Of a stretch of DNA of 64,000 nt, positions 17,049-51,766 are shown piece after piece (position 1 is the first letter of the stretch; each line of letters opens with the position of its first letter). Origin of the DNA: an uncultured Gammaproteobacteria bacterium (GTDB taxonomy: Bacteria; Patescibacteriota; Patescibacteriia; SBBC01; CAIJZX01); NCBI GenBank assembly GCA_964397195.1, contig CAYNGY010000004.1, positions 1,923-65,922 of the forward strand, in the 5' to 3' direction. The notes beneath the pieces were generated by a model that saw only the letters and a program-made list of their open reading frames with translations, was not told the origin of the DNA and did not search any database. Both the position numbers and the translations under genes were made by a program.

Positions 17049-17852
17049 TCAGACCTTGACGTGGTCGGTACGGGTGACGAAGGAACCGTCGGGCAGGGCC
17101 ACGAGCGTGTAGTCGCCGAACATACTCGGCGCTTCCCGCTGCATGATCTTCAGCACCGCGACGGCGACCTTGCGGATCTCGACCTCGGCGTGCTCACTGC
17201 CCCGCAGCTCGATGAAGTGTCGCAGAGCCCGCGCATTCGCCGTGACGAAGATCTTGGTCTCCGTCGCGTTGGGTAGGACCGACCGCGCCGCCTGCCGCGC
17301 CATCTTCCGGCGCAACGTCTTGTCGGTCACGTACTGGAACTTCTCCTCGAGACCGGCCACGAGCAGATCGTAGCCACGTCGCGCGGCGTTGATCGCATGG
17401 GCCCAGATCGCGTGAAGCGCCGGGTCGTCCGCGATCACGTCCGGCTCGATGTAGTCGGAATCGCTCTCGTCCACGTACCGCTGAGAAAGCTGCGAATACG
17501 AGAAGTGACGATGGCGGATGAGCTCGTGGGTGAACGAGCGGGACGCGCCGGTGATCAGGAAGTTCCAGACGCCGTGCTCGAGGACCGAACCGTGTCCGAC
17601 CTCGATCAGGTGCGACATGAACTCCCCATTCGTCTTGCGACCTCGGCCGTACGACATGTAGCAGACCCGTCCGGCGATCTCGGCCAGCTTCTCAGCGCCG
17701 ACCTCCGTGTCCGTCTCCCAGGTCATGCCTTCGTCCGCCAGGAACCGTTCGATGTCCTCGTCGCAGGTGACCTGCTTTCCGACGAGAAACACCTTCGGCT
17801 CACGACTGATGGCCAGTGTTCCGGCGTAGTCACGCTCGAGCTTCGTGTCCAT
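17049..17852 (-). CDS. thyX: flavin-dependent thymidylate synthase ThyX
   Basis: ThyX signature RHRHFSYSQLSQRY. Start at MDTKLERDY, preceded by SD GGGAGGA. About 63% GC with strong GC3 bias. Confidence 0.85.
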   Translation of the reverse strand: MDTKLERDYAGTLAISREPKVFLVGKQVTCDEDIERFLADEGMTWETDTEVGAEKLAEIAGRVCYMSYGRGRKTNGEFMSHLIEVGHGSVLEHGVWNFLITGASRSFTHELIRHRHFSYSQLSQRYVDESDSDYIEPDVIADDPALHAIWAHAINAARRGYDLLVAGLEEKFQYVTDKTLRRKMARQAARSVLPNATETKIFVTANARALRHFIELRGSEHAEVEIRKVAVAVLKIMQREAPSMFGDYTLVALPDGSFVTRTDHVKV

Positions 17853-17986
17853 GCATCCTCCCCCAACGGTCATCCGTCGCGCAGGTGGTAGATACTGCCT
17901 GTAAGGGGCAACTACTTCACCCCTCTGTTGTGAAGTCGGGAGTAGCCTAGCAGAACAACGGCTCCCCGGTCAAAGGTACTCGACCA

Positions 17987-18103: not shown

Positions 18104-18802
18104 TCAGCGTCGCCGGCGCTTGGCCTGTGCCAGGGCCGCGTGGATGAGCTGAGAGGTCTCATTCCAGTCCTCCGGGAGCTCATAGCACGTGTCGCACCGG
18201 GCTTCGTAGGTGATTCCGGCGTTGTTGTACTTCGGGGTGTCCGGCAGGAAGACCGGGTGGAAGCGCGGAACCGGCTGGCCGAACTCGAGTCGCTGCGGAT
18301 ACTCCGCGCCCCAGCGTTCGCACTTCTTACAGCGGGCCTCGAGGAATTCCCGCTGGCCGGGCACCGCGATCAGGTTCGCCATCAACGGGAATGGGACCCC
18401 GCGGAAGTCGACCGGTAACCCGGACAGGAAGAGATTACGACCGGATCGTCGGACGGCCGCCAGCATCTCGAATGCGGCATCTGGCCCCTCGCGAAACGTC
18501 TGCGCGAACTGGACCTCGTCGAAGAAGATGTTCAGCGCATTCGATCGCAGGATATAGCGAGCCATCTGGGTCAGGCTCGACACCGGGATGGTTTCCGGAT
18601 ACTGCGCCTGGATACGACTCTTCACGCCGACCACGGTACGCATCGCCATCCGTGGCTGGAAGAACAAGACCCCGGACCGTTGGTTGGCCGGATCACGCGC
18701 CAGCCCGATCAGTCGGGTGGTTTTACCGGCGGTCATGTTGGCCACGATGATGCGCTGATCACCGAGGGTGTGAGACCGCAACGTTGGGAAGTCCAGCTTC
18801 AT
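18104..18802 (-). CDS. tdk: thymidine kinase
   Basis: P-loop NMTAGKTT, DEVQF, DFRG, and a C-terminal CKKC...CDTC zinc ribbon, all matching TK1-type Tdk. SD GAGGTG 7 nt before ATG 18802. Confidence 0.8.
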   Translation of the reverse strand: MKLDFPTLRSHTLGDQRIIVANMTAGKTTRLIGLARDPANQRSGVLFFQPRMAMRTVVGVKSRIQAQYPETIPVSSLTQMARYILRSNALNIFFDEVQFAQTFREGPDAAFEMLAAVRRSGRNLFLSGLPVDFRGVPFPLMANLIAVPGQREFLEARCKKCERWGAEYPQRLEFGQPVPRFHPVFLPDTPKYNNAGITYEARCDTCYELPEDWNETSQLIHAALAQAKRRRR

Positions 18803-18845
18803 AGTGCACCTCACAGAGAAGGACGGTCAGGGACGGACGGCTATG

Positions 18846-39498: not shown

Positions 39499-40452
39499 TC
39501 AGGTCCGCGCCGCCGGTTTTCGGGCGATTACGTTAAAATGCCAGTTCAACAGATGGAGTCCCGGCACCATTCTGAGCACCTCATCAATCCGTGATAAGAC
39601 ATGGTCCATCGTTCGCCATGTCGCCAACGGTTTATGTCGCAGGCGACCGAGAAAACGCGTCAACTGTTCATTGACCGAACCGAGGTATTTAATCCGTCGA
39701 ACATCTTCAATCTGAAGTCCCGCCGTGGCAAATGTGGTTCGAATTAACGGTAGTGTATACCCTTCGGTCGTGTCATCGGCCACCGAGTTATGTTGCCGGT
39801 CGCGATTGGCGCGAATGAAGTTCTTCAACGGACGCAACCAGCGATACATGGTTCGATATGGCCACTGCGCCGGCTCAATTCCCCAGATCACGAGGCCACC
39901 GGGTTTGACGACACGAGCAAATTCTTGTAAGGCGGCGGCTTGATTCGGAAGATGGTGAAATGAGGCGGCAATAAAGGCGGCGTCGAAACTGTTATCGGCA
40001 AACGGCATGTGCTCCGCGTCAGCGACAGCAAACCGCATGTGCTCACCAAGCGGTGTGCCCGAAGCTAACCATCGCGACTTCGCCACTGAGACCGGAGAAA
40101 TATCGAATGAGGTTACGAATTTATTGGCCGCGGCAATTTCAATTCCATCAGCCCGCGTCCCGCAGGCCACTTCCAGCACGGCGGCACCATCTGGCAGTTG
40201 CCGCATTGGGTTTAGGAAGTGCCAGTGAAATGACGAGTTCCGTCCGCGTAACGACCGCGGCGGCGCCGTCCGTGAGATCTCATCGTGAAAAGCCTGCTCC
40301 TCACCTTTAAACGCATCCAAACCTGAGGCGATCAAGATGGGCAAGCCGTCCTGAACAGGATACATCTTTCCACAACCGGTACACACCCACATCTCGCCGT
40401 CCTGACGGATCGGTTGGTGGCAGGCGGGACAGGCAAATGATGGATGACTCAT
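39499..40452 (-). CDS. class I SAM-dependent methyltransferase with N-terminal Trm112-like zinc ribbon
   Basis: CPACHQ...CTGCGKMYPVQDGLPILI then VLEVACGTRADGIE (motif I). Confidence 0.7.
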   Translation of the reverse strand: MSHPSFACPACHQPIRQDGEMWVCTGCGKMYPVQDGLPILIASGLDAFKGEEQAFHDEISRTAPPRSLRGRNSSFHWHFLNPMRQLPDGAAVLEVACGTRADGIEIAAANKFVTSFDISPVSVAKSRWLASGTPLGEHMRFAVADAEHMPFADNSFDAAFIAASFHHLPNQAAALQEFARVVKPGGLVIWGIEPAQWPYRTMYRWLRPLKNFIRANRDRQHNSVADDTTEGYTLPLIRTTFATAGLQIEDVRRIKYLGSVNEQLTRFLGRLRHKPLATWRTMDHVLSRIDEVLRMVPGLHLLNWHFNVIARKPAART

Positions 40453-40521
40453 GATCGTGAAGAAAGTGGAGTGAACGTAATCGAGGACTGCACCGTACCA
40501 CTCGCCCTATCCGGCGTCAAT

Positions 40522-40980
40522 TTAGTCTTTTCGTACCCCCTCGTATGGCAGTCCGTGATGGCCATGATGCTTATGTTTCCGAACGACATGGAGACGGGCT
40601 AGATCGCGTTCAAGTTTCGCGGCCATTCCAGCGTACTCGACATGCTCATGGGTAAGTTCAGACTTCAACTGCTCGGCACGAGCAATCGCATCATGAACCC
40701 GTTGTTCATCTATCTCGGCAATATGTTCCGCGGTATCCGCCAAGACCACGAGTTTGTCAGGATGGACCTCAAGAAACCCGCCACCGATTGCGAACGGTTC
40801 TTCACGGCCATCCGACAAATGAATCATCAGTTCTCCCGCTTTCAAGGTGGTCGCAATCGGCATGTGATGTGGTAAAACCGTAATCTGACCATCAATCGTC
40901 GGCACGGTCATGCCAGCCACATCCGCATGATAGACTTCGCGAACCGGCGTAATGATGCTGAGAGAGATAGTGCTAGTCAT
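40522..40980 (-). CDS. atpC: F-type ATP synthase epsilon subunit
   Basis: Beta-sandwich N-domain plus C-terminal helices. His-rich tail. Confidence 0.85.
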   Translation of the reverse strand: MTSTISLSIITPVREVYHADVAGMTVPTIDGQITVLPHHMPIATTLKAGELMIHLSDGREEPFAIGGGFLEVHPDKLVVLADTAEHIAEIDEQRVHDAIARAEQLKSELTHEHVEYAGMAAKLERDLARLHVVRKHKHHGHHGLPYEGVRKD

Positions 40981-41173
40981 CGCGCCACGCGTGAATATCC
41001 TTCATCGCAAACGAACGCTCAACATTTTTTTCAACGTCCATGGCGTCAAGGAGCCACTGCGGTTCCGGATGCCACGGTGTTGAAGCAAAACGCATGGATC
41101 GCGGCACAATGCGACGTTCGTGTCGCTCGCCGCGATGGTTTGTATAATCGATGCTGACGATATGATCGTCCAT
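40973..41173 (-). CDS. conserved-looking small ORF (66 aa) between atpD and atpC
   Basis: ATG 4 nt after the atpD TAA, in the same frame (TAA-TAT-ATG). Stop overlaps the atpC ATG (ATGACTAG). Normal codon usage. Fills an otherwise atypical 200-bp gap. Confidence 0.45.
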   Translation of the reverse strand: MDDHIVSIDYTNHRGERHERRIVPRSMRFASTPWHPEPQWLLDAMDVEKNVERSFAMKDIHAWRDD

Positions 41174-41176
41174 ATA

Positions 41177-42574
<1,398 letters not shown>

Positions 42575-43507
42575 CTAGCCTTCTAAAGCCGCCCGGCTGG
42601 CGGAAATTTCCGCCAAGTCCTGGGTAATGGCCGCCTGGCGGGCTTGGTTAAAGGTCAACGTTAAGTCGTCAATGAGTTCTTCGGCGGCATCCGAGGCGTT
42701 CCGCATCGCCAACATCCGCGCCGCATGCTCCGAAGCGTTTGTTTCCAGCACGGCCCGGAAGATCTGCATCTCCACCAGCCGCGGGAGCAGTGTTTCCAAG
42801 ACCGTATCGGCGTTTGGCTCAAATGCATATTCAAATGTCCGTTCCTCAGCCGCTTCTTCCGCCAAGACCTGTTCACGCTCACCGCGATCAAAGAGTCCGA
42901 GATGGTTCTCTTGTAAGTCAATCGGCGTCAGCGGCAGTATTTGCCGGACCCGCGGCTTTTGTACCAGCGATGAAACGTAGTCGACATAGGCGACGACGAC
43001 CTGATCATACTTCCCGGCCACGAAGCCATCAATCGCCATCTTCGCGACTGGACGAACATGGATACTATCGGTCACGACATCGTCTTTCACAAACTCAGCG
43101 GCCACGTCGTGGTGGAATTGCGTATGGAGACTACGACCTTTTGTCCCAAGGAGCATCACCGACGGCGTCACGACTTGGCCCGGTAAGGCTCGCAGATACC
43201 CATCGACCGCGGACAACAACTGTGAATTCAACGACCCGACAAAGCCGCGGTTCGACGAAACGACGATCACCGCCACATTCGCCACCGGACTCGTTTTTCG
43301 CAGCAAGGGATGTTTGCTCGCGTCGGTCCGCTTCGCCACATTCACCAACATTTCCCAAGCCGCGTTGGTATACGGTCGACTCGACAACACCGCCTGCGTT
43401 GCCTTACGCATTTTCACGCTGGAGACAAGCTCCATCGCCTTCGTAATCTTGCGCGTACTACCAATCGACCGAATGCGCCGCTTAATCTCGCCAGTAGAAA
43501 CGCTCAT
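42575..43507 (-). CDS. atpG: F-type ATP synthase gamma subunit
   Basis: Start at [14 protein letters not shown] (ATG 43507), adjacent to the atpA stop. The track ORF has a spurious 5' extension. Confidence 0.9.
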
Positions 43508-45000
43508 GCCCAGGTTGCCACAAAGTCGGTAATAATCTGCTTCAACTGCGCCTCGAGCTCCGGCGTTAAATCTTTGGCAACAATCAATGAATCCATCCAA
43601 ACGCTCCCGACACCATCAAGATGGGCTCGGAAAGCGTCTTGAAAGGCCACGAGCTTTTCTGGATCGACGGCATCAAGTAACCCATTCGTCACCGCGTACA
43701 GAATGGCAACCTGCTGCGGCACCGCCAGCGGTTGGTACTGACCCTGCTTCAAAATTTCCGTCATCCGGCGTCCCCGTTCAAGCTGTTGTTTTGTGGCGGC
43801 GTCGAGATCGGAGCCAAACTGGGCAAATCCGGCCAATTCGCGATATTGTGCCAAGGCGATTCGAAGTTTCCCCGCCACTTTCTTCATCGCTTTCGTTTGA
43901 GCGGCCGAGCCGACACGAGACACCGACAACCCCACGTTCAGCGCCGGTCGAATACCTTGGTAGAACAAGTCCGATTCAAGATAAATCTGTCCATCCGTAA
44001 TCGAAATAACATTGGTCGGAATATACGCTGAGACGTCTCCGGCCTGTGTTTCAATGATTGGCAACGCCGTCATCGATCCACCTCCCGCTTCTGGATTCAA
44101 TCGCGCCGAACGCTCGAGCAGACGGGAATGGGCGTAAAAAATGTCGCCCGGATACGCTTCGCGTCCCGGCGGTCGCCGCAGGAGGAGCGAAACTTGACGA
44201 TAGGCCCAGGCGTGCTTGGAAAGATCATCAAATACGACCAGGACGTCTTTCCCTTGCGCCATGAAATATTCACCGATCGCACACCCGCTATACGGCGCTA
44301 GATATGAGAGCGCCGCCGGATCGGAGGCTCCGGCCAATACGACCGTCGTATAGTCCATAGCCCCAACTTCCTGAAGCTTAGCGACAATGCGCGCCACTTT
44401 TGATTCTTTCTGCCCGATGGCCACATAGATACAGATAACGTCTTGGCCCTTTTGGTTAATAATCGTATCAACGGCAATTGCCGTTTTGCCGGTTTGCCGG
44501 TCACCGATAATTAATTCGCGCTGTCCGCGTCCGATCGGAATCATCGCGTCAATCGCTTTAATCCCGGTTTGGAGCGGGACCGTCACCGACTGTCGGGTAA
44601 TGACTCCCGGGGCAATCTTTTCCACCGGCATCATCATCTCCGCCACCACGGCGCCCCGACCATCCAGGGCTTCACCGAGCGGATTCACCACCCGGCCAAT
44701 CACCCCGGCACCGGTCGGAACTTGTAAAATATTTCCGGTCGCCGTCACCCGCTGGCCCTGACGCACCGCGGCTGCGTCACCCAGAATCATGACCCCAACG
44801 GTGTCCTCCTCAAGGTTCAAGGCGACACCGTTCGTCCCGTCTTCAAAGGCGACCATCTCTGATGATCGTACATGCTTCAAACCGCTGACGCGGGCGATTC
44901 CGTCACCAACCTCAAGCACCGTACCAACCTCGGTCACGGTCGCCGAAGTCTTGGCGGTTGTAAGTTCTTTTGCTAATGCGTCAACGAGTGATTCGGGCAT
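43504..45000 (-). CDS. atpA: F-type ATP synthase alpha subunit
   Basis: Walker A GDRQTGKT, typical alpha subunit. Confidence 0.95.
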
Positions 45001-45003
45001 ACG

Positions 45004-45384
45004 TTATGCGTGAAAAAGAAGTGATTGTTGTAGTTGTCGTAAACGACCGTCTAAACTGGCGTCGATGCGACGATCATCGACAATAACCGCCACGCCCCGT
45101 CGAAGTTCCGGTCGGATCACGACCGTCACATCGGTTTTTGTAAGCTGATCGGCCAGGGCATCCGCCGCACGCGGCGTCGCGGCTTCAATTGTTACCCGAC
45201 GTCGGCCCCGACGAGCTGATTCGATATTTCGCAGATGTTCGAGCACTCGCGGCATGAGGCGCATCGCCCGATCGCGTCGGAGGCGATGGAGGATACGTGG
45301 CGCTATCTGCGCCACCGATGCTTTCGGCGCCGTCAAGGCCATATCGATGGCCATCGCATACTGGCGAGCGCTCAGCCGTTTCAT
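45004..45384 (-). CDS. atpH: F-type ATP synthase delta subunit, short form (126 aa, lacks most of the N-terminal domain)
   Basis: Matches only the OSCP/delta C-terminal region. ATGA overlap with atpF. Confidence 0.7.
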   Translation of the reverse strand: MKRLSARQYAMAIDMALTAPKASVAQIAPRILHRLRRDRAMRLMPRVLEHLRNIESARRGRRRVTIEAATPRAADALADQLTKTDVTVVIRPELRRGVAVIVDDRRIDASLDGRLRQLQQSLLFHA

Positions 45385-45887
45385 GATTTCGATGATAATT
45401 CTTCAAGCGCCTCACGCGCCGACTGCGTCTCAAAGGCCTTTCCGGATTTCTTCTCGATCACCAAGCCAGCGGCTTGCACCACGAGGGTCGCTAGGTCTTT
45501 CTTCGCTTCCGAGATCATGGCGGTTCGTTCACGACGAAGTTCGGCGCGAGCTTCCGACATCACCTTCTCAGCGTCGGTTTTCGCGTCGGCCACCAGCCGC
45601 TCGCGCATCACCTGGGCCTCGGCTCGCGCCGCCACTAAGATATCACCTGCTTCGCGGCGGGCTTGGGTCGCAATGTCTTTATGTTGGGCCTCGGCGCCGG
45701 CCAAGGCTTCGCGAGTGGCTTTTTCCTGATCAACAGTTTTGGCCGCTAAGGCCCGACGAGCATCGAGCACTTTCAAAATTGGGGCGAACGCGAATTTTCG
45801 CAGCACCCACAAAACGATCAGGAACGTGACGATATTCGCCACGAGGAGTTTCCAGTCGATTCCGAGTTTATGAATAAGTTCCCCCAT
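45381..45887 (-). CDS. atpF: F-type ATP synthase subunit b
   Basis: N-terminal TM then a long Ala/Glu/Arg-rich helix. Confidence 0.85.
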   Translation of the reverse strand: MGELIHKLGIDWKLLVANIVTFLIVLWVLRKFAFAPILKVLDARRALAAKTVDQEKATREALAGAEAQHKDIATQARREAGDILVAARAEAQVMRERLVADAKTDAEKVMSEARAELRRERTAMISEAKKDLATLVVQAAGLVIEKKSGKAFETQSAREALEELSSKS

Positions 45888-45898
45888 CGGGTGTCGGA

Positions 45899-46898
<1,000 letters not shown>

Positions 46899-46900
46899 GA

Positions 46901-47158
46901 TTATTGTTTCTTCGGTGTCTCTTTTTCAAGATCACGAAGGAGTTGAGAAAATTTTCGAACGAGGAAAACGGTCGTCACGAGGACGGCCATGGCCATCCCG
47001 CCCAAGAAGAGCCACGGCGTGGTACCAAACCGGCGATCGAGCCAGCGACCACCGAGGCCGAAGAGGAGAAGCGGAATGACGATCAGATACCCCAGCTCGA
47101 AGACCAATCCGAGGGCTACCCAATATGGTCGACGCGGGGTGTCAGGTTGGGTCTTCAT
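46901..47158 (-). CDS. atpI: AtpI/AtpZ-like small membrane protein (85 aa)
   Basis: Internal start MKTQPD... of track ORF 46901..47398; two TM helices; leads the atp operon. Confidence 0.6.
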   Translation of the reverse strand: MKTQPDTPRRPYWVALGLVFELGYLIVIPLLLFGLGGRWLDRRFGTTPWLFLGGMAMAVLVTTVFLVRKFSQLLRDLEKETPKKQ

Positions 47159-47198
47159 GGTGCATTCACATCTTTCATCCACAATCAAAAGCGCCGAG

Positions 47199-47253
47199 AG
47201 TATACTCGTTTTTCGCGAAATGCTCAAGACTGGGAAAACTTTTTGGCTAAGAT
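47199..47253 (-). promoter_or_regulatory. atp operon promoter (TTGAGC-17-TATACT) with upstream ATCTTAGCCAAAAA element
   Basis: -10 at 47204-47199 and -35 at 47227-47222 (minus). The 14-nt element at plus 47240-47253 lies 35 nt upstream of the -10, identical to the thyX promoter. Confidence 0.5.
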
Positions 47254-47277
47254 TAGCGAATCTTCGCAAATCACACC

Positions 47278-47305
47278 TTGACACTCCTGGTAAAAGGCAT
47301 AGTCT
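47278..47305 (+). promoter_or_regulatory. promoter of high-GC cassette 2 (TTGACA-16-TAGTCT)
   Basis: The track ORF 'start' (TTG 47278) is actually the -35 hexamer. Confidence 0.4.
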
Positions 47306-47340
47306 TCCGCCACCAATCGCACCACCCCTGCCACCCGAGC

Positions 47341-47874
47341 ATGGAGGTCGCCGTGGCCAAACACCACCGCCAAAAGCAAGCCACCCCGCGGGGAACAATC
47401 GACGAGCAGGAACTCCGCGCCGCCCAAGCCGCCTACGGCCGAAGCAACGAGGAGCGTGTCTTGTACCTGCTCGAACGGCACATTTCCAACGCCACCCATC
47501 GCCCGCCGTGGCTCGTCTCGATTCGACGCGCCACCGAGGAAGAAGACGTGCTCGGGATCGACCTTGTCGCTATCACCGTCGACAGCCCGAACGTCTACAT
47601 CCAGATCAAGAGCAGTGAGAGCTTTAGGAAGATCCATATCGACAAGGGTCGGAAGCTCTGGCGCGCCGGCGCGACGGTCCACATCACCGGCGTCATGATC
47701 GCCAATCATGCCCTGACGGACAAGAAGATCATCGGCCGCGGTATGGCGACGATCAGCCGCGTCTATCGCACCGTCAAGAACCTCGGCTCGAACATCATGC
47801 CGTCGTACCGTCACACGGGCGACGATATCACCGACTGTGACCACCACCCGGTCAACACCCCGGAGGTCCCATGA
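47341..47874 (+). CDS. NERD-domain (nuclease-related) protein, high-GC cassette 2
   Basis: GRSNEERVLYLLERH...EDVLGIDLVAITVDSPNVYIQIKSSE matches the NERD pattern GxxxE...L...EIDhhhh...hhIEVK. About 62% GC. No SD. Confidence 0.45.
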   Translation: MEVAVAKHHRQKQATPRGTIDEQELRAAQAAYGRSNEERVLYLLERHISNATHRPPWLVSIRRATEEEDVLGIDLVAITVDSPNVYIQIKSSESFRKIHIDKGRKLWRAGATVHITGVMIANHALTDKKIIGRGMATISRVYRTVKNLGSNIMPSYRHTGDDITDCDHHPVNTPEVP

Positions 47875-50226: not shown

Positions 50227-51675
50227 CTACTTCTTCGCGTGAAGCGTGAACGGGACATCGACCACGACGTTCGCCGAGGTCCGGCGGCCGTTCGTGGGTT
50301 CGACCCGCGCTTCGAGGGTGATCGTTGCCAGCGGCAGCGCCACGGCGATGTGGCCATCGATCCGCTGGGTGAACCCACCGCGCGGGGCGTAGCGCACGGG
50401 TTCGAGCCCGCCGCCGAACGTCACCGCGCCATGAGTGTACTGCGCGTCGAGCACCGCACCTTCGGCCAGCGTCAGCCGATGCGTGCGATACGTGAAGACC
50501 ATCGCCCCGAGATCGACCCCGTGACCGGACCAGGCCAGCTTCGCCATCGGTCCGACGTAGGGGTGGACGCCGTCCGGCTTGACGAGCGTCCCGAGCGATC
50601 CACCGACATTCAGCGCCATCGCCGGGTGGGAGAGAAGGTCATAGCGCCCGAACAGGTCGAGCGCACTGCCGTCGGCCATCACCGTCGGATTGACGAGCGT
50701 CCGCCCGCCATCGAAGGTGTAGCCGTACATCGAGCCTCGACCGAAGGCCCACTCGCCCGCCGTCAGGGAGACGGTGTGCGGCGCGGCCACGGCCAGGGTG
50801 AAACCGAACGTCACGAACAGCGCGACGAAGGCGGACAGCAGGACAGCGAAGCGGGACATGCGGCTCTCCTTGAGAGTGGGCGGTGCACGCCCACGAGTGA
50901 TTGATCGTGACGGTGCCGTCACGACCCTCGTGACTGCACCACTGATACCGAGAACGAGCAGAAACACGACCGCCCAGTGCATTGCCGGCGGGAGTTCAGC
51001 CGTCTCGGGTGAAACAGGTGATGCACTCTGACACTGCGTCGAAGCCGTGATCTGCGTCTGCGTCGTCGGGAGGAGCACGGTGGGTGCTTTCCCGATTGTC
51101 AGCACAGACAGTAGCCCGAGCAAGATCAGTAGGTACGGGAACACGAGCATCACCCCCCAGGCCACGCCGCCGCCGATTCCGATCGACGATAGCGTCTTAG
51201 CCAACAGGAGGTACCAACGCCCATGGACCATGCCATACGCATCCAAGTATCCCGGACCCCACTGGCGGTTATGAGGATCGCGGTTGAAGTATCCCGACAT
51301 GCCGGCCGATCCGTAGGCCGTCCATGCCTGGCTCATCAACTCGTCGGTCACCCATTCCTTGCGCACGTGCGTCGAGGCCTTTGTGCCGCCTCCTACCCAG
51401 CGATGCGTCAGGTCGACAAGAATGGCCGGGAAATCGGCATGGTAAACGGTCGGATTCTCCGCCACCAACGCCATCGCCTTGTTCCAGTCTCGCCAGAACT
51501 CGTCCGGGTTTTGCGGATCGAGCAGACCAATCTGCGCCATCGTCCGGCTATGCAACGCACCGTCAGCGACGATCGTCCGCAAGTCGGCCTGAGCCCAGAT
51601 CAGTACCAGCGTGATTACAACACCTCCGATCAAGACCGGAGGACGTAACCAAATGTTGCGCTTCAGAAGAATCAC
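50227..51675 (-). CDS. hypothetical polytopic membrane protein (about 483 aa), high-GC cassette 3
   Basis: About 65% GC. The track start (ATG 51747) lies inside the promoter -10. Preferred start is GTG 51675 after SD AAAAGGGGG. Five or more TM helices, then a C-terminal secreted-type domain. Confidence 0.5.
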   Translation of the reverse strand: MILLKRNIWLRPPVLIGGVVITLVLIWAQADLRTIVADGALHSRTMAQIGLLDPQNPDEFWRDWNKAMALVAENPTVYHADFPAILVDLTHRWVGGGTKASTHVRKEWVTDELMSQAWTAYGSAGMSGYFNRDPHNRQWGPGYLDAYGMVHGRWYLLLAKTLSSIGIGGGVAWGVMLVFPYLLILLGLLSVLTIGKAPTVLLPTTQTQITASTQCQSASPVSPETAELPPAMHWAVVFLLVLGISGAVTRVVTAPSRSITRGRAPPTLKESRMSRFAVLLSAFVALFVTFGFTLAVAAPHTVSLTAGEWAFGRGSMYGYTFDGGRTLVNPTVMADGSALDLFGRYDLLSHPAMALNVGGSLGTLVKPDGVHPYVGPMAKLAWSGHGVDLGAMVFTYRTHRLTLAEGAVLDAQYTHGAVTFGGGLEPVRYAPRGGFTQRIDGHIAVALPLATITLEARVEPTNGRRTSANVVVDVPFTLHAKK

Positions 51676-51737
51676 CCCCTTTTCGCGCGAAGATGATCCG
51701 GCGAGAATGCCGGATGTATGCAAATGTGCGACCCCGC

Positions 51738-51766
51738 AAACTATCATAAATCCCCGGTTTTGTCAA
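51738..51766 (-). promoter_or_regulatory. promoter P2 (TTGACA-17-TAGTTT with CCGGGGATTTATGA block)
   Basis: Minus strand cTTGACAaaaCCGGGGATTTATGATAGTTT. Nearly identical to P1 and P3. Confidence 0.5.

Follow-up and report, generated by a model that had tools for sequence, protein, structure and literature searches.

Results

Organization of the atp locus

The window, by which we mean the whole stretch of DNA analyzed (64 kb; 64,000 nucleotides), carries on its minus strand an atp operon in the order AtpZ/AtpI-like gene, atpB, atpE, atpF, atpH, atpA, atpG, atpD, ORF66, and atpC. ORF66 (positions 40973 to 41173; 66 aa, 8.0 kDa, pI 5.9) encodes a stand-alone WYL-like domain protein and is a member of the family phrog_3715. 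The preceding gene, atpD (41177 to 42568, minus strand; F1 beta, 463 aa; Pfam ATP-synt_ab, E = 2e-72), ends with a TAA stop at 41179 to 41177, followed by a spacer of 3 nt (TAT, 41174 to 41176) and, in the same frame, by the ATG of ORF66 at 41173. The TAG of ORF66 lies at 40973, and its end overlaps atpC by 8 nt (ATGACTAG, 40973 to 40980), with the atpC ATG (40980) inside the overlap. The gene that follows, atpC (40522 to 40980, minus strand; 152 aa), encodes F1 epsilon (Pfam ATP-synt_DE_N, E = 2e-23; ATP-synt_DE, E = 5e-5), which carries a His-rich extension (…RKHKHHGHHGLPYEGVRKD) past the usual two-helix C-terminal domain (window positions 40522 to 40575). These coordinates confirmed the preliminary description, in which a 66-codon ORF had been placed between atpD and atpC, in frame with the former and overlapping the start codon of the latter.

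The upstream remainder of the operon (42575 to 47398, minus strand), from the AtpZ/AtpI-like gene to atpG, was assigned from gene order and junctions. PF09527 (ATPase_gene1, AtpZ/AtpI-like) was matched with an E value of 4.5e-9 in the ORF at 46904 to 47398 (minus strand), upstream of atpB; the domain corresponds to residues 96 to 140 of this TTG-started ORF, and an internal ATG (MKTQPD…) is probably its real start. A segment of 3,452 bp spanning atpG, atpD, ORF66, and atpC was recovered at 100% identity from run SRR12487045 in an independent assembly by Logan (L007), and the arrangement is therefore not a mis-join or an assembly artifact. Alignments of AtpC with its homologues begin at residues 1 to 5, and ATG 40980 is therefore the true start of atpC.

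No Shine-Dalgarno motif was found before any gene of the atp operon (upstream regions, window positions 40981 to 47150), so that arguments from ribosome-binding sites are uninformative here. Within the same positions, the atp junctions consist mostly of ATGA overlaps or spacers of 2 to 11 nt, which suggests termination-reinitiation coupling or Shine-Dalgarno-independent initiation in this host. A promoter and terminator scan of positions 40200 to 42700 gave nothing exceeding shuffled expectation, and visual inspection of the borders of ORF66 revealed neither direct repeats nor any other scar of an insertion. Judged from its position, with coupling at both ends, ORF66 is almost certainly transcribed together with atpD and atpC and coupled to both in translation, which upholds the earlier proposal that it is expressed together with the ATP synthase genes.

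The shared frame, with one sense codon (TAT) from the atpD stop to the ATG of ORF66, had also been taken to permit read-through of the atpD TAA and thereby a beta subunit extended at its C terminus. Two genes share a frame by chance in one case in three, and the same geometry was found at atpH-atpA (stop, 3 nt, ATG) and at atpG-atpD (stop, 6 nt, ATG); hence, the in-frame spacing of ORF66, earlier regarded as distinctive, is not a special signal. The stop context of atpD is TAA-T, and TAA followed by T is the strongest (most efficient) termination context in Escherichia coli. AtpD was full length in comparison with its homologues, and its C-terminal end coincides with theirs. Furthermore, ORF66 has an ATG of its own, and its homologues are free-standing proteins of 47 to 93 aa. 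With these findings, a read-through product is most improbable.

ORF66 is a conserved protein-coding gene

The codon usage of ORF66 was host-like, with a CAI-like score of 0.826 versus a mean of 0.782 (standard deviation, 0.061) for 49 reference ORFs, a GC content of 0.527, and a GC3 of 0.567, and both alternative frames had lower CAI-like scores; the ordinary codon usage ascribed to it earlier was thus borne out. A codon-level comparison of the family revealed purifying selection (pN of 0.19 to 0.31 versus pS of 0.70 to 1.1, the latter mostly saturated), the lack of which would have spoken against the gene. In comparisons with measurable dS, dN/dS was 0.05 to 0.13, and loci L116 and L121 differed by a pN of 0.06 and a pS of 0.82. 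In an alignment of 28 sequences, the invariant positions of the family (R20, P24, H35, W40, A44, D46, R53, and A56) were all kept in ORF66, as was every one of 12 near-invariant positions, and the segments YTNHRGE, WHPEPQW, and FAMKDI displayed strong family-specific conservation. ORF66 is thus a real, conserved protein-coding gene.

Elsewhere in the window, three long ORFs (17049 to 17873, 18104 to 18814, and 50227 to 51747, all on the minus strand) were compositional outliers, with a GC content of 0.63 and a GC3 of 0.77 to 0.85; the GC content of the window is 0.54, and GC3 is typically about 0.6. They may be of foreign origin or may be spurious ORFs in antisense orientation.

Family membership

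The preliminary description had assigned ORF66 to no recognized family. This did not hold: ORF66 matched phrog_3715, a phage family of unknown function, over residues 3 to 61 (E = 3.3e-19, 70.4 bits) and, weakly, the Pfam WYL domain (PF13280; 17.2 bits, E = 0.005, under the gathering cutoff of 21.8). A homologue with a tandem duplication of the domain (P0029, 139 aa) scored 23.6 bits with PF13280, and precomputed PF13280 matches were present on several homologues. PADLOC returned a weak match to a CRISPR-associated WYL protein (E = 0.004), and no NCBIfam model matched ORF66. A word-indexed search retrieved 28 homologues (47 to 93 aa, 45 to 71% identity), and an exhaustive search of 1.8 billion proteins clustered at 50% identity retrieved 3,877 cluster representatives at an E value of ≤1e-3, of which 1,107 were at ≤1e-10; these include tandem copies and fusions with other domains. 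No paralogue of ORF66 was detected within the 64-kb window.

Among the longer family members, the domain was fused to a NUDIX hydrolase in P0140 (217 aa) and to a CYTH-like phosphatase in an Aeromonas phage D3 protein (BFVD A0A514TV53, 504 aa), two fusions that further tie the family to nucleotide-handling enzymes. It also formed the C-terminal part of proteins of approximately 320 aa (P0134, P0146, and P0155; 319 to 335 aa) that had no Pfam match.

Residues 30 to 46 of ORF66 (STPWHPEPQWLLDAMD, window positions 41066 to 41086) resemble the repeat motif of OAA-family lectins (sAPWHPGGxWvlGxRD), and whole-sequence E values, summed over the repeats, went down to 6e-6. Homology to these lectins (BOA 4gk9, PFA 4fbo, and MBHA 4fbr) was considered and rejected: the matches covered 12 to 30 residues only, each with a per-stretch E value of >1, the family profile match was weaker (E = 0.007), and there was no lectin fold, with no lectin among the top 50 Foldseek matches of the ORF66 model. 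The motif is probably coincidental or convergent.

Predicted fold and ligand surface

The AlphaFold2 model of ORF66, built on the 28-sequence alignment, was confident (pLDDT 94.1) and contained five beta strands (residues 6 to 11, 17 to 30, 39 to 46, 51 to 56, and 60 to 65). The structure check that had been proposed for the 66-aa protein thus gave a clear answer: in a Foldseek search of the PDB, all top 31 matches were WYL domains (query-normalized TM scores of 0.65 to 0.79, root mean square deviations of 1.8 to 3.7 Å), among them those of BrxR (7qfz and 7t8k), PafBC (6sj9 and 9fnd), CapW (7tb5 and 9c5g), and DriD (7tzv and 8tp8). In BFVD, a collection of predicted viral structures, the best matches were phage proteins that are annotated as WYL domain containing or are uncharacterized (TM scores up to 0.94). 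A giant-virus member in the same collection, V9SDX8 of Tunisvirus fontaine2 (Marseilleviridae, with amoebae as hosts; 40% identity, TM score of 0.89), extends the reach of the family beyond bacteriophages.

In the predicted model, ORF66 is a stand-alone WYL-fold barrel, in which W40-L41-L42 is the WYL motif. It has the five-stranded Sm/SH3-like barrel of the WYL domains of BrxR, CapW, PafBC, and DriD and shares with BrxR and CapW the elements R-x-x-x-P (beta2; R20...P24), W-x-L (beta3; W40-L41-L42), and R-x-F (beta4; R53-x-F55), all of which were invariant or nearly so across the 28 sequences. JGI names the homologues of ORF66 YafY/COG2378. Unlike the wHTH-WYL-WCX regulators of that name, however, the 66-aa ORF66 consists of the barrel only, without a winged helix-turn-helix (HTH) and without a WCX domain, an architecture that excludes a role as a transcription factor.

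WYL domains serve as modules for ligand sensing (PMC10693628, PMC11662680). In Rhizobium leguminosarum CapW, single-stranded DNA (ssDNA) is contacted by S144, R164, R168, and R184 (PMC11662680). By profile alignment and strand positions, these correspond to N12, Q39, D43, and D59 in ORF66, a mapping that is by inference near a 6-residue insertion (PWHPEP) which, unlike in characterized WYL sensors, lies ahead of the WYL strand. Since the arginines through which CapW contacts ssDNA are replaced in the ORF66 family, ssDNA is not to be assumed as its ligand. As read from these alignments, the ligand surface of ORF66 is predicted to be remodeled compared to those of characterized WYL sensors, and its ligand may differ from those of characterized WYL regulators.

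The atpD-atpC junction in related genomes

With AtpD as the query, we retrieved 80 related atp loci from 185,579 species genomes. The AtpD protein of the window shared 69 to 78% identity with its counterparts in metagenome-assembled genomes (MAGs) of Patescibacteria and other bacteria; the closest matches (74 to 78% identity) were from MAGs of Magasanikbacteria and other Patescibacteria, and the best among the 185,579 species genomes had 78% identity. These matches make a CPR (Patescibacteria) bacterium the probable source of the window. A scan of metagenome contigs with AtpC for closer relatives gave no match. In most of the 80 loci, the distance between atpD and atpC was −13 to +30 nt, so that the earlier statement that the beta and epsilon genes normally abut held for most relatives; it did not hold for about 10 loci, mostly labeled Patescibacteria, in which the two genes are roughly 100 to 1,250 bp apart. 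Five of the gapped loci hold unrelated genes or ORFs at this junction: a 107-aa membrane protein (L016:3956-4279), three reverse-strand genes for carbonic anhydrase-like, glyoxalase-like, and coiled-coil proteins (L026:3874-5100), a PD-(D/E)XK (PDDEXK_3) gene (L040:4141-4569), and, in two Saccharibacteria, one (L053:3866-4084) or two (L085:3863-4314) small ORFs, tightly coupled and without an assigned family. The atpD-atpC junction in Patescibacteria thus appears, from these gene layouts, to be a recurrent landing site. We found no description of such inserts in Patescibacteria in the literature.

A homologue of ORF66, which the preliminary description had suggested be sought as the same insertion in related atp operons, was present in none of the 80 loci. 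Conversely, we collected 120 loci with members of the family (18 by exact-protein look-up, 22 from IMG/VR, and 80 from metagenomes), and none of these contained any of eight atp genes (tblastn, E ≤ 1e-4). Within the data searched, the atp location of a family member is unique to this genome.

These results bear on a functional tie to ATP synthase, in essence the earlier reading of the location of the gene. In such a view, ORF66 would be a lineage-specific F1Fo accessory subunit or regulator, e.g., an inhibitor at beta and epsilon, perhaps sensing adenine nucleotides via its barrel. Such a role would suit a gene with host-like codon usage that lies between those for beta and epsilon and is tightly coupled at both ends, and it could draw on the ligand sensing of the WYL fold (PMC10693628, PMC11662680) and on the nucleotide-handling enzymes that the family accompanies. 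However, the absence of the gene from 80 of 80 related operons and of atp genes from the 120 family loci speaks against it, as does the success of the family in phages, which lack an ATP synthase. Moreover, since unrelated genes occupy the same junction in other Patescibacteria, position at this junction is by itself uninformative on function. A role in ATP synthase is thus distinctly improbable, and a functional tie was not supported. Small extra genes do occur in atp operons, such as atpI/atpZ and the cyanobacterial atp1/CGL160 homologue (PMC4383579), and ORF66 resembles them in being small, non-core, and embedded in the operon, with which it is almost certainly cotranscribed. In contrast to these clade-conserved membrane proteins, which are linked to assembly, ORF66 is soluble and found in one lineage, with a probable phage or cassette origin, and an AtpZ/AtpI-like gene is already present ahead of atpB in the window.

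Tolerance of assorted inserts at this junction in relatives is also what would be expected if ORF66 were a functionless passenger, i.e., left over from an earlier insertion and tolerated since translation of atpC is undisturbed, and the single occurrence of ORF66, without a partner gene, would fit as well. Yet the reading frame is intact, all invariant and near-invariant residues of the family are kept, the AlphaFold2 model is confident, and the composition is fully host-like, which indicates long residence without decay. We consider it improbable that ORF66 is such a remnant; it is an intact, selected, and host-ameliorated member of its family.

Copies in phages

By tblastn, the family was detected in about 300 deposited phage genomes, including those of 182 Escherichia phages (rV5-like and phiEco32-like), as well as Salmonella phage 7-11, Cronobacter phage GAP52, Bacillus phage CP-51, and Rhizobium T4-like, Aeromonas, and Campylobacter phages; 22 IMG/VR contigs also carried a member. 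These copies are annotated as hypothetical and occasionally as WYL domain protein. They are solo small ORFs, usually with a 4-nt overlap with a neighbor, in early, replication, or nucleotide metabolism modules. Their neighbors encode ThyX, DHFR, dCMP deaminase, NT5C, MazG/PRA-PH, NUDIX, and dGTP diphosphohydrolase-type proteins, along with PolA, DnaB, UvsX, ligase, EndoVII, capsid, and integrase proteins, and no fixed neighbor was found among the loci examined.

ORF66 was 33 to 57% identical to phrog_3715 proteins of phages (Salmonella 7-11, rV5, phiEco32, Rhizobium RHph_TM30, Bacillus CP-51, and Aeromonas LAh_9), with a near-identical predicted structure (TM score up to 0.94); it is also as small as they are and packed just as tightly between adjacent genes. 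The phage copies lie in phage replication and nucleotide metabolism modules, whereas ORF66 lies in a cellular housekeeping operon. Literature searches yielded nothing on stand-alone WYL miniproteins of phages.

A cassette with a dCTP deaminase-like gene

Downstream sequence of 400 nt or more was available for 100 family loci. In 25 of these, the WYL-like gene was followed, on the same strand and after 0 to 28 nt, by a gene for a dCTP deaminase (DCD)-like protein; of the 11 loci whose family member was most similar to ORF66 (67 to 71% identity), 8 carried this partner. Examples are L116:1108-2369, L117:1052-2298, and L122:149-1372; the cassette was also found in L123, L124, L127, L129 to L131, L135, L139, L144, L145, L149, L158, L159, L163, L186, and others. 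The partner is 330 to 350 aa long; a dCTP deaminase domain (TIGR02274, 117.7 bits versus a cutoff of 92.8; Pfam DCD, E = 1e-31) occupies residues 1 to 183, and a helical C-terminal region of approximately 150 residues includes two hydrophobic segments. It matched no PADLOC model.

The cassette resides in host DNA of 32 to 64% GC with variable flanks, which include ychF, ABC-2 transporters, IS110/DDE transposases, TIR, STAND NTPase, AbiEii-like AAA, and HerA genes. To judge by these neighbors, its settings look like cellular, mobile, defense-island-like DNA. Nucleotide depletion by dCTP deaminases is an antiphage defense (PMC13276650). The closest relatives of ORF66 resemble that system in being paired with an enzyme of the dCTP deaminase family in defense-island-like contexts; they differ from it in that the cassette partner combines a DCD/dUTPase-like fold with a hydrophobic C-terminal tail and has a candidate defense role only. 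No description of a WYL and dCTP deaminase pair was found in the literature, and the pair of WYL-like and DCD-like genes is a candidate for an undescribed defense or toxin-antidote module.

ORF66 differs from these paired relatives in that it has no partner: the gene directly downstream is atpC rather than a DCD-like gene, and a tblastn search of the 64-kb window for DCD homologues was negative.

At L118:276-867, and also in L119 and L120, the gene that comes after, and overlaps, one of the closest homologues of ORF66 (P0002, 70% identity) encodes a GIY-YIG nuclease and not a DCD-like protein. This suggests that the small WYL-like gene is able to travel with homing endonuclease-like elements.

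Discussion

The gene between atpD and atpC is a further member of a known, uncharacterized family (WYL fold, phrog_3715) at an unusual location. The family itself is a divergent WYL subfamily with two usual settings, namely, solo genes of phages and the cassette of a WYL-like and a DCD-like gene, and neither is the setting of ORF66. In our judgment, ORF66 is likely to be an orphan mobile WYL-like gene and not a component of ATP synthase. It would have been acquired horizontally, either from a phage or from a cassette, and kept as a partnerless orphan between atpD and atpC of a probable Patescibacteria (CPR) chromosome. Since the gene is part of the atp transcript, with start/stop coupling on either side, its expression would be passive, with the atp operon serving only as a supply of constitutive expression. 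Its product may bind a nucleotide-like or single-stranded nucleic acid ligand, a DCD-type enzyme, or both, and would thus be a sensor or a neutralizing partner rather than a part of ATP synthase.

A more specific version of events can be drawn from the gene pairings, in which the WYL-like protein of the cassette would sense or neutralize, and thereby restrain, the DCD-like effector of an undescribed nucleotide depletion or toxin-antidote pair. The solo genes of phages would then be counterdefense mimics, and the atp copy would be a domesticated antidote that gives constitutive protection against genomic or incoming effectors. The pair is conserved, with a spacing of 0 to 28 nt and the small gene first, and the partner accompanies 8 of the 11 closest relatives of ORF66 in defense-island-like neighborhoods; solo copies are found in many virulent phages, and ORF66 is in an operon that is needed constitutively. 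The order of the two genes, however, would also suit a sensor, a regulator, or merely a cofactor, the DCD-like protein had no PADLOC match, and no homologue of it occurs in the 64 kb of the window. We hold it rather unlikely that ORF66 is an antidote of this kind, and an orphan mobile gene is the reading that we prefer.

For ATP synthase, the outcome is deflationary, with support for neither a new subunit nor a beta subunit extended by read-through. What remains at the locus is a mobile small gene at a junction that is often used for cargo by Patescibacteria. The remaining value of the finding, i.e., the remodeled WYL surface and the cassette, lies largely outside the window. A very large and strongly conserved family, which comprises about 3,900 clusters when grouped at 50% identity and has members in model phages such as rV5, phiEco32, 7-11, and CP-51, has the WYL fold with what is predicted to be a redesigned ligand surface. 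The cassette pair is a candidate for a new module, either of nucleotide depletion immunity or of the toxin-antidote type, that phage genes would mimic. Within the atp operon, ORF66 offers a natural example of an orphan component under selection.
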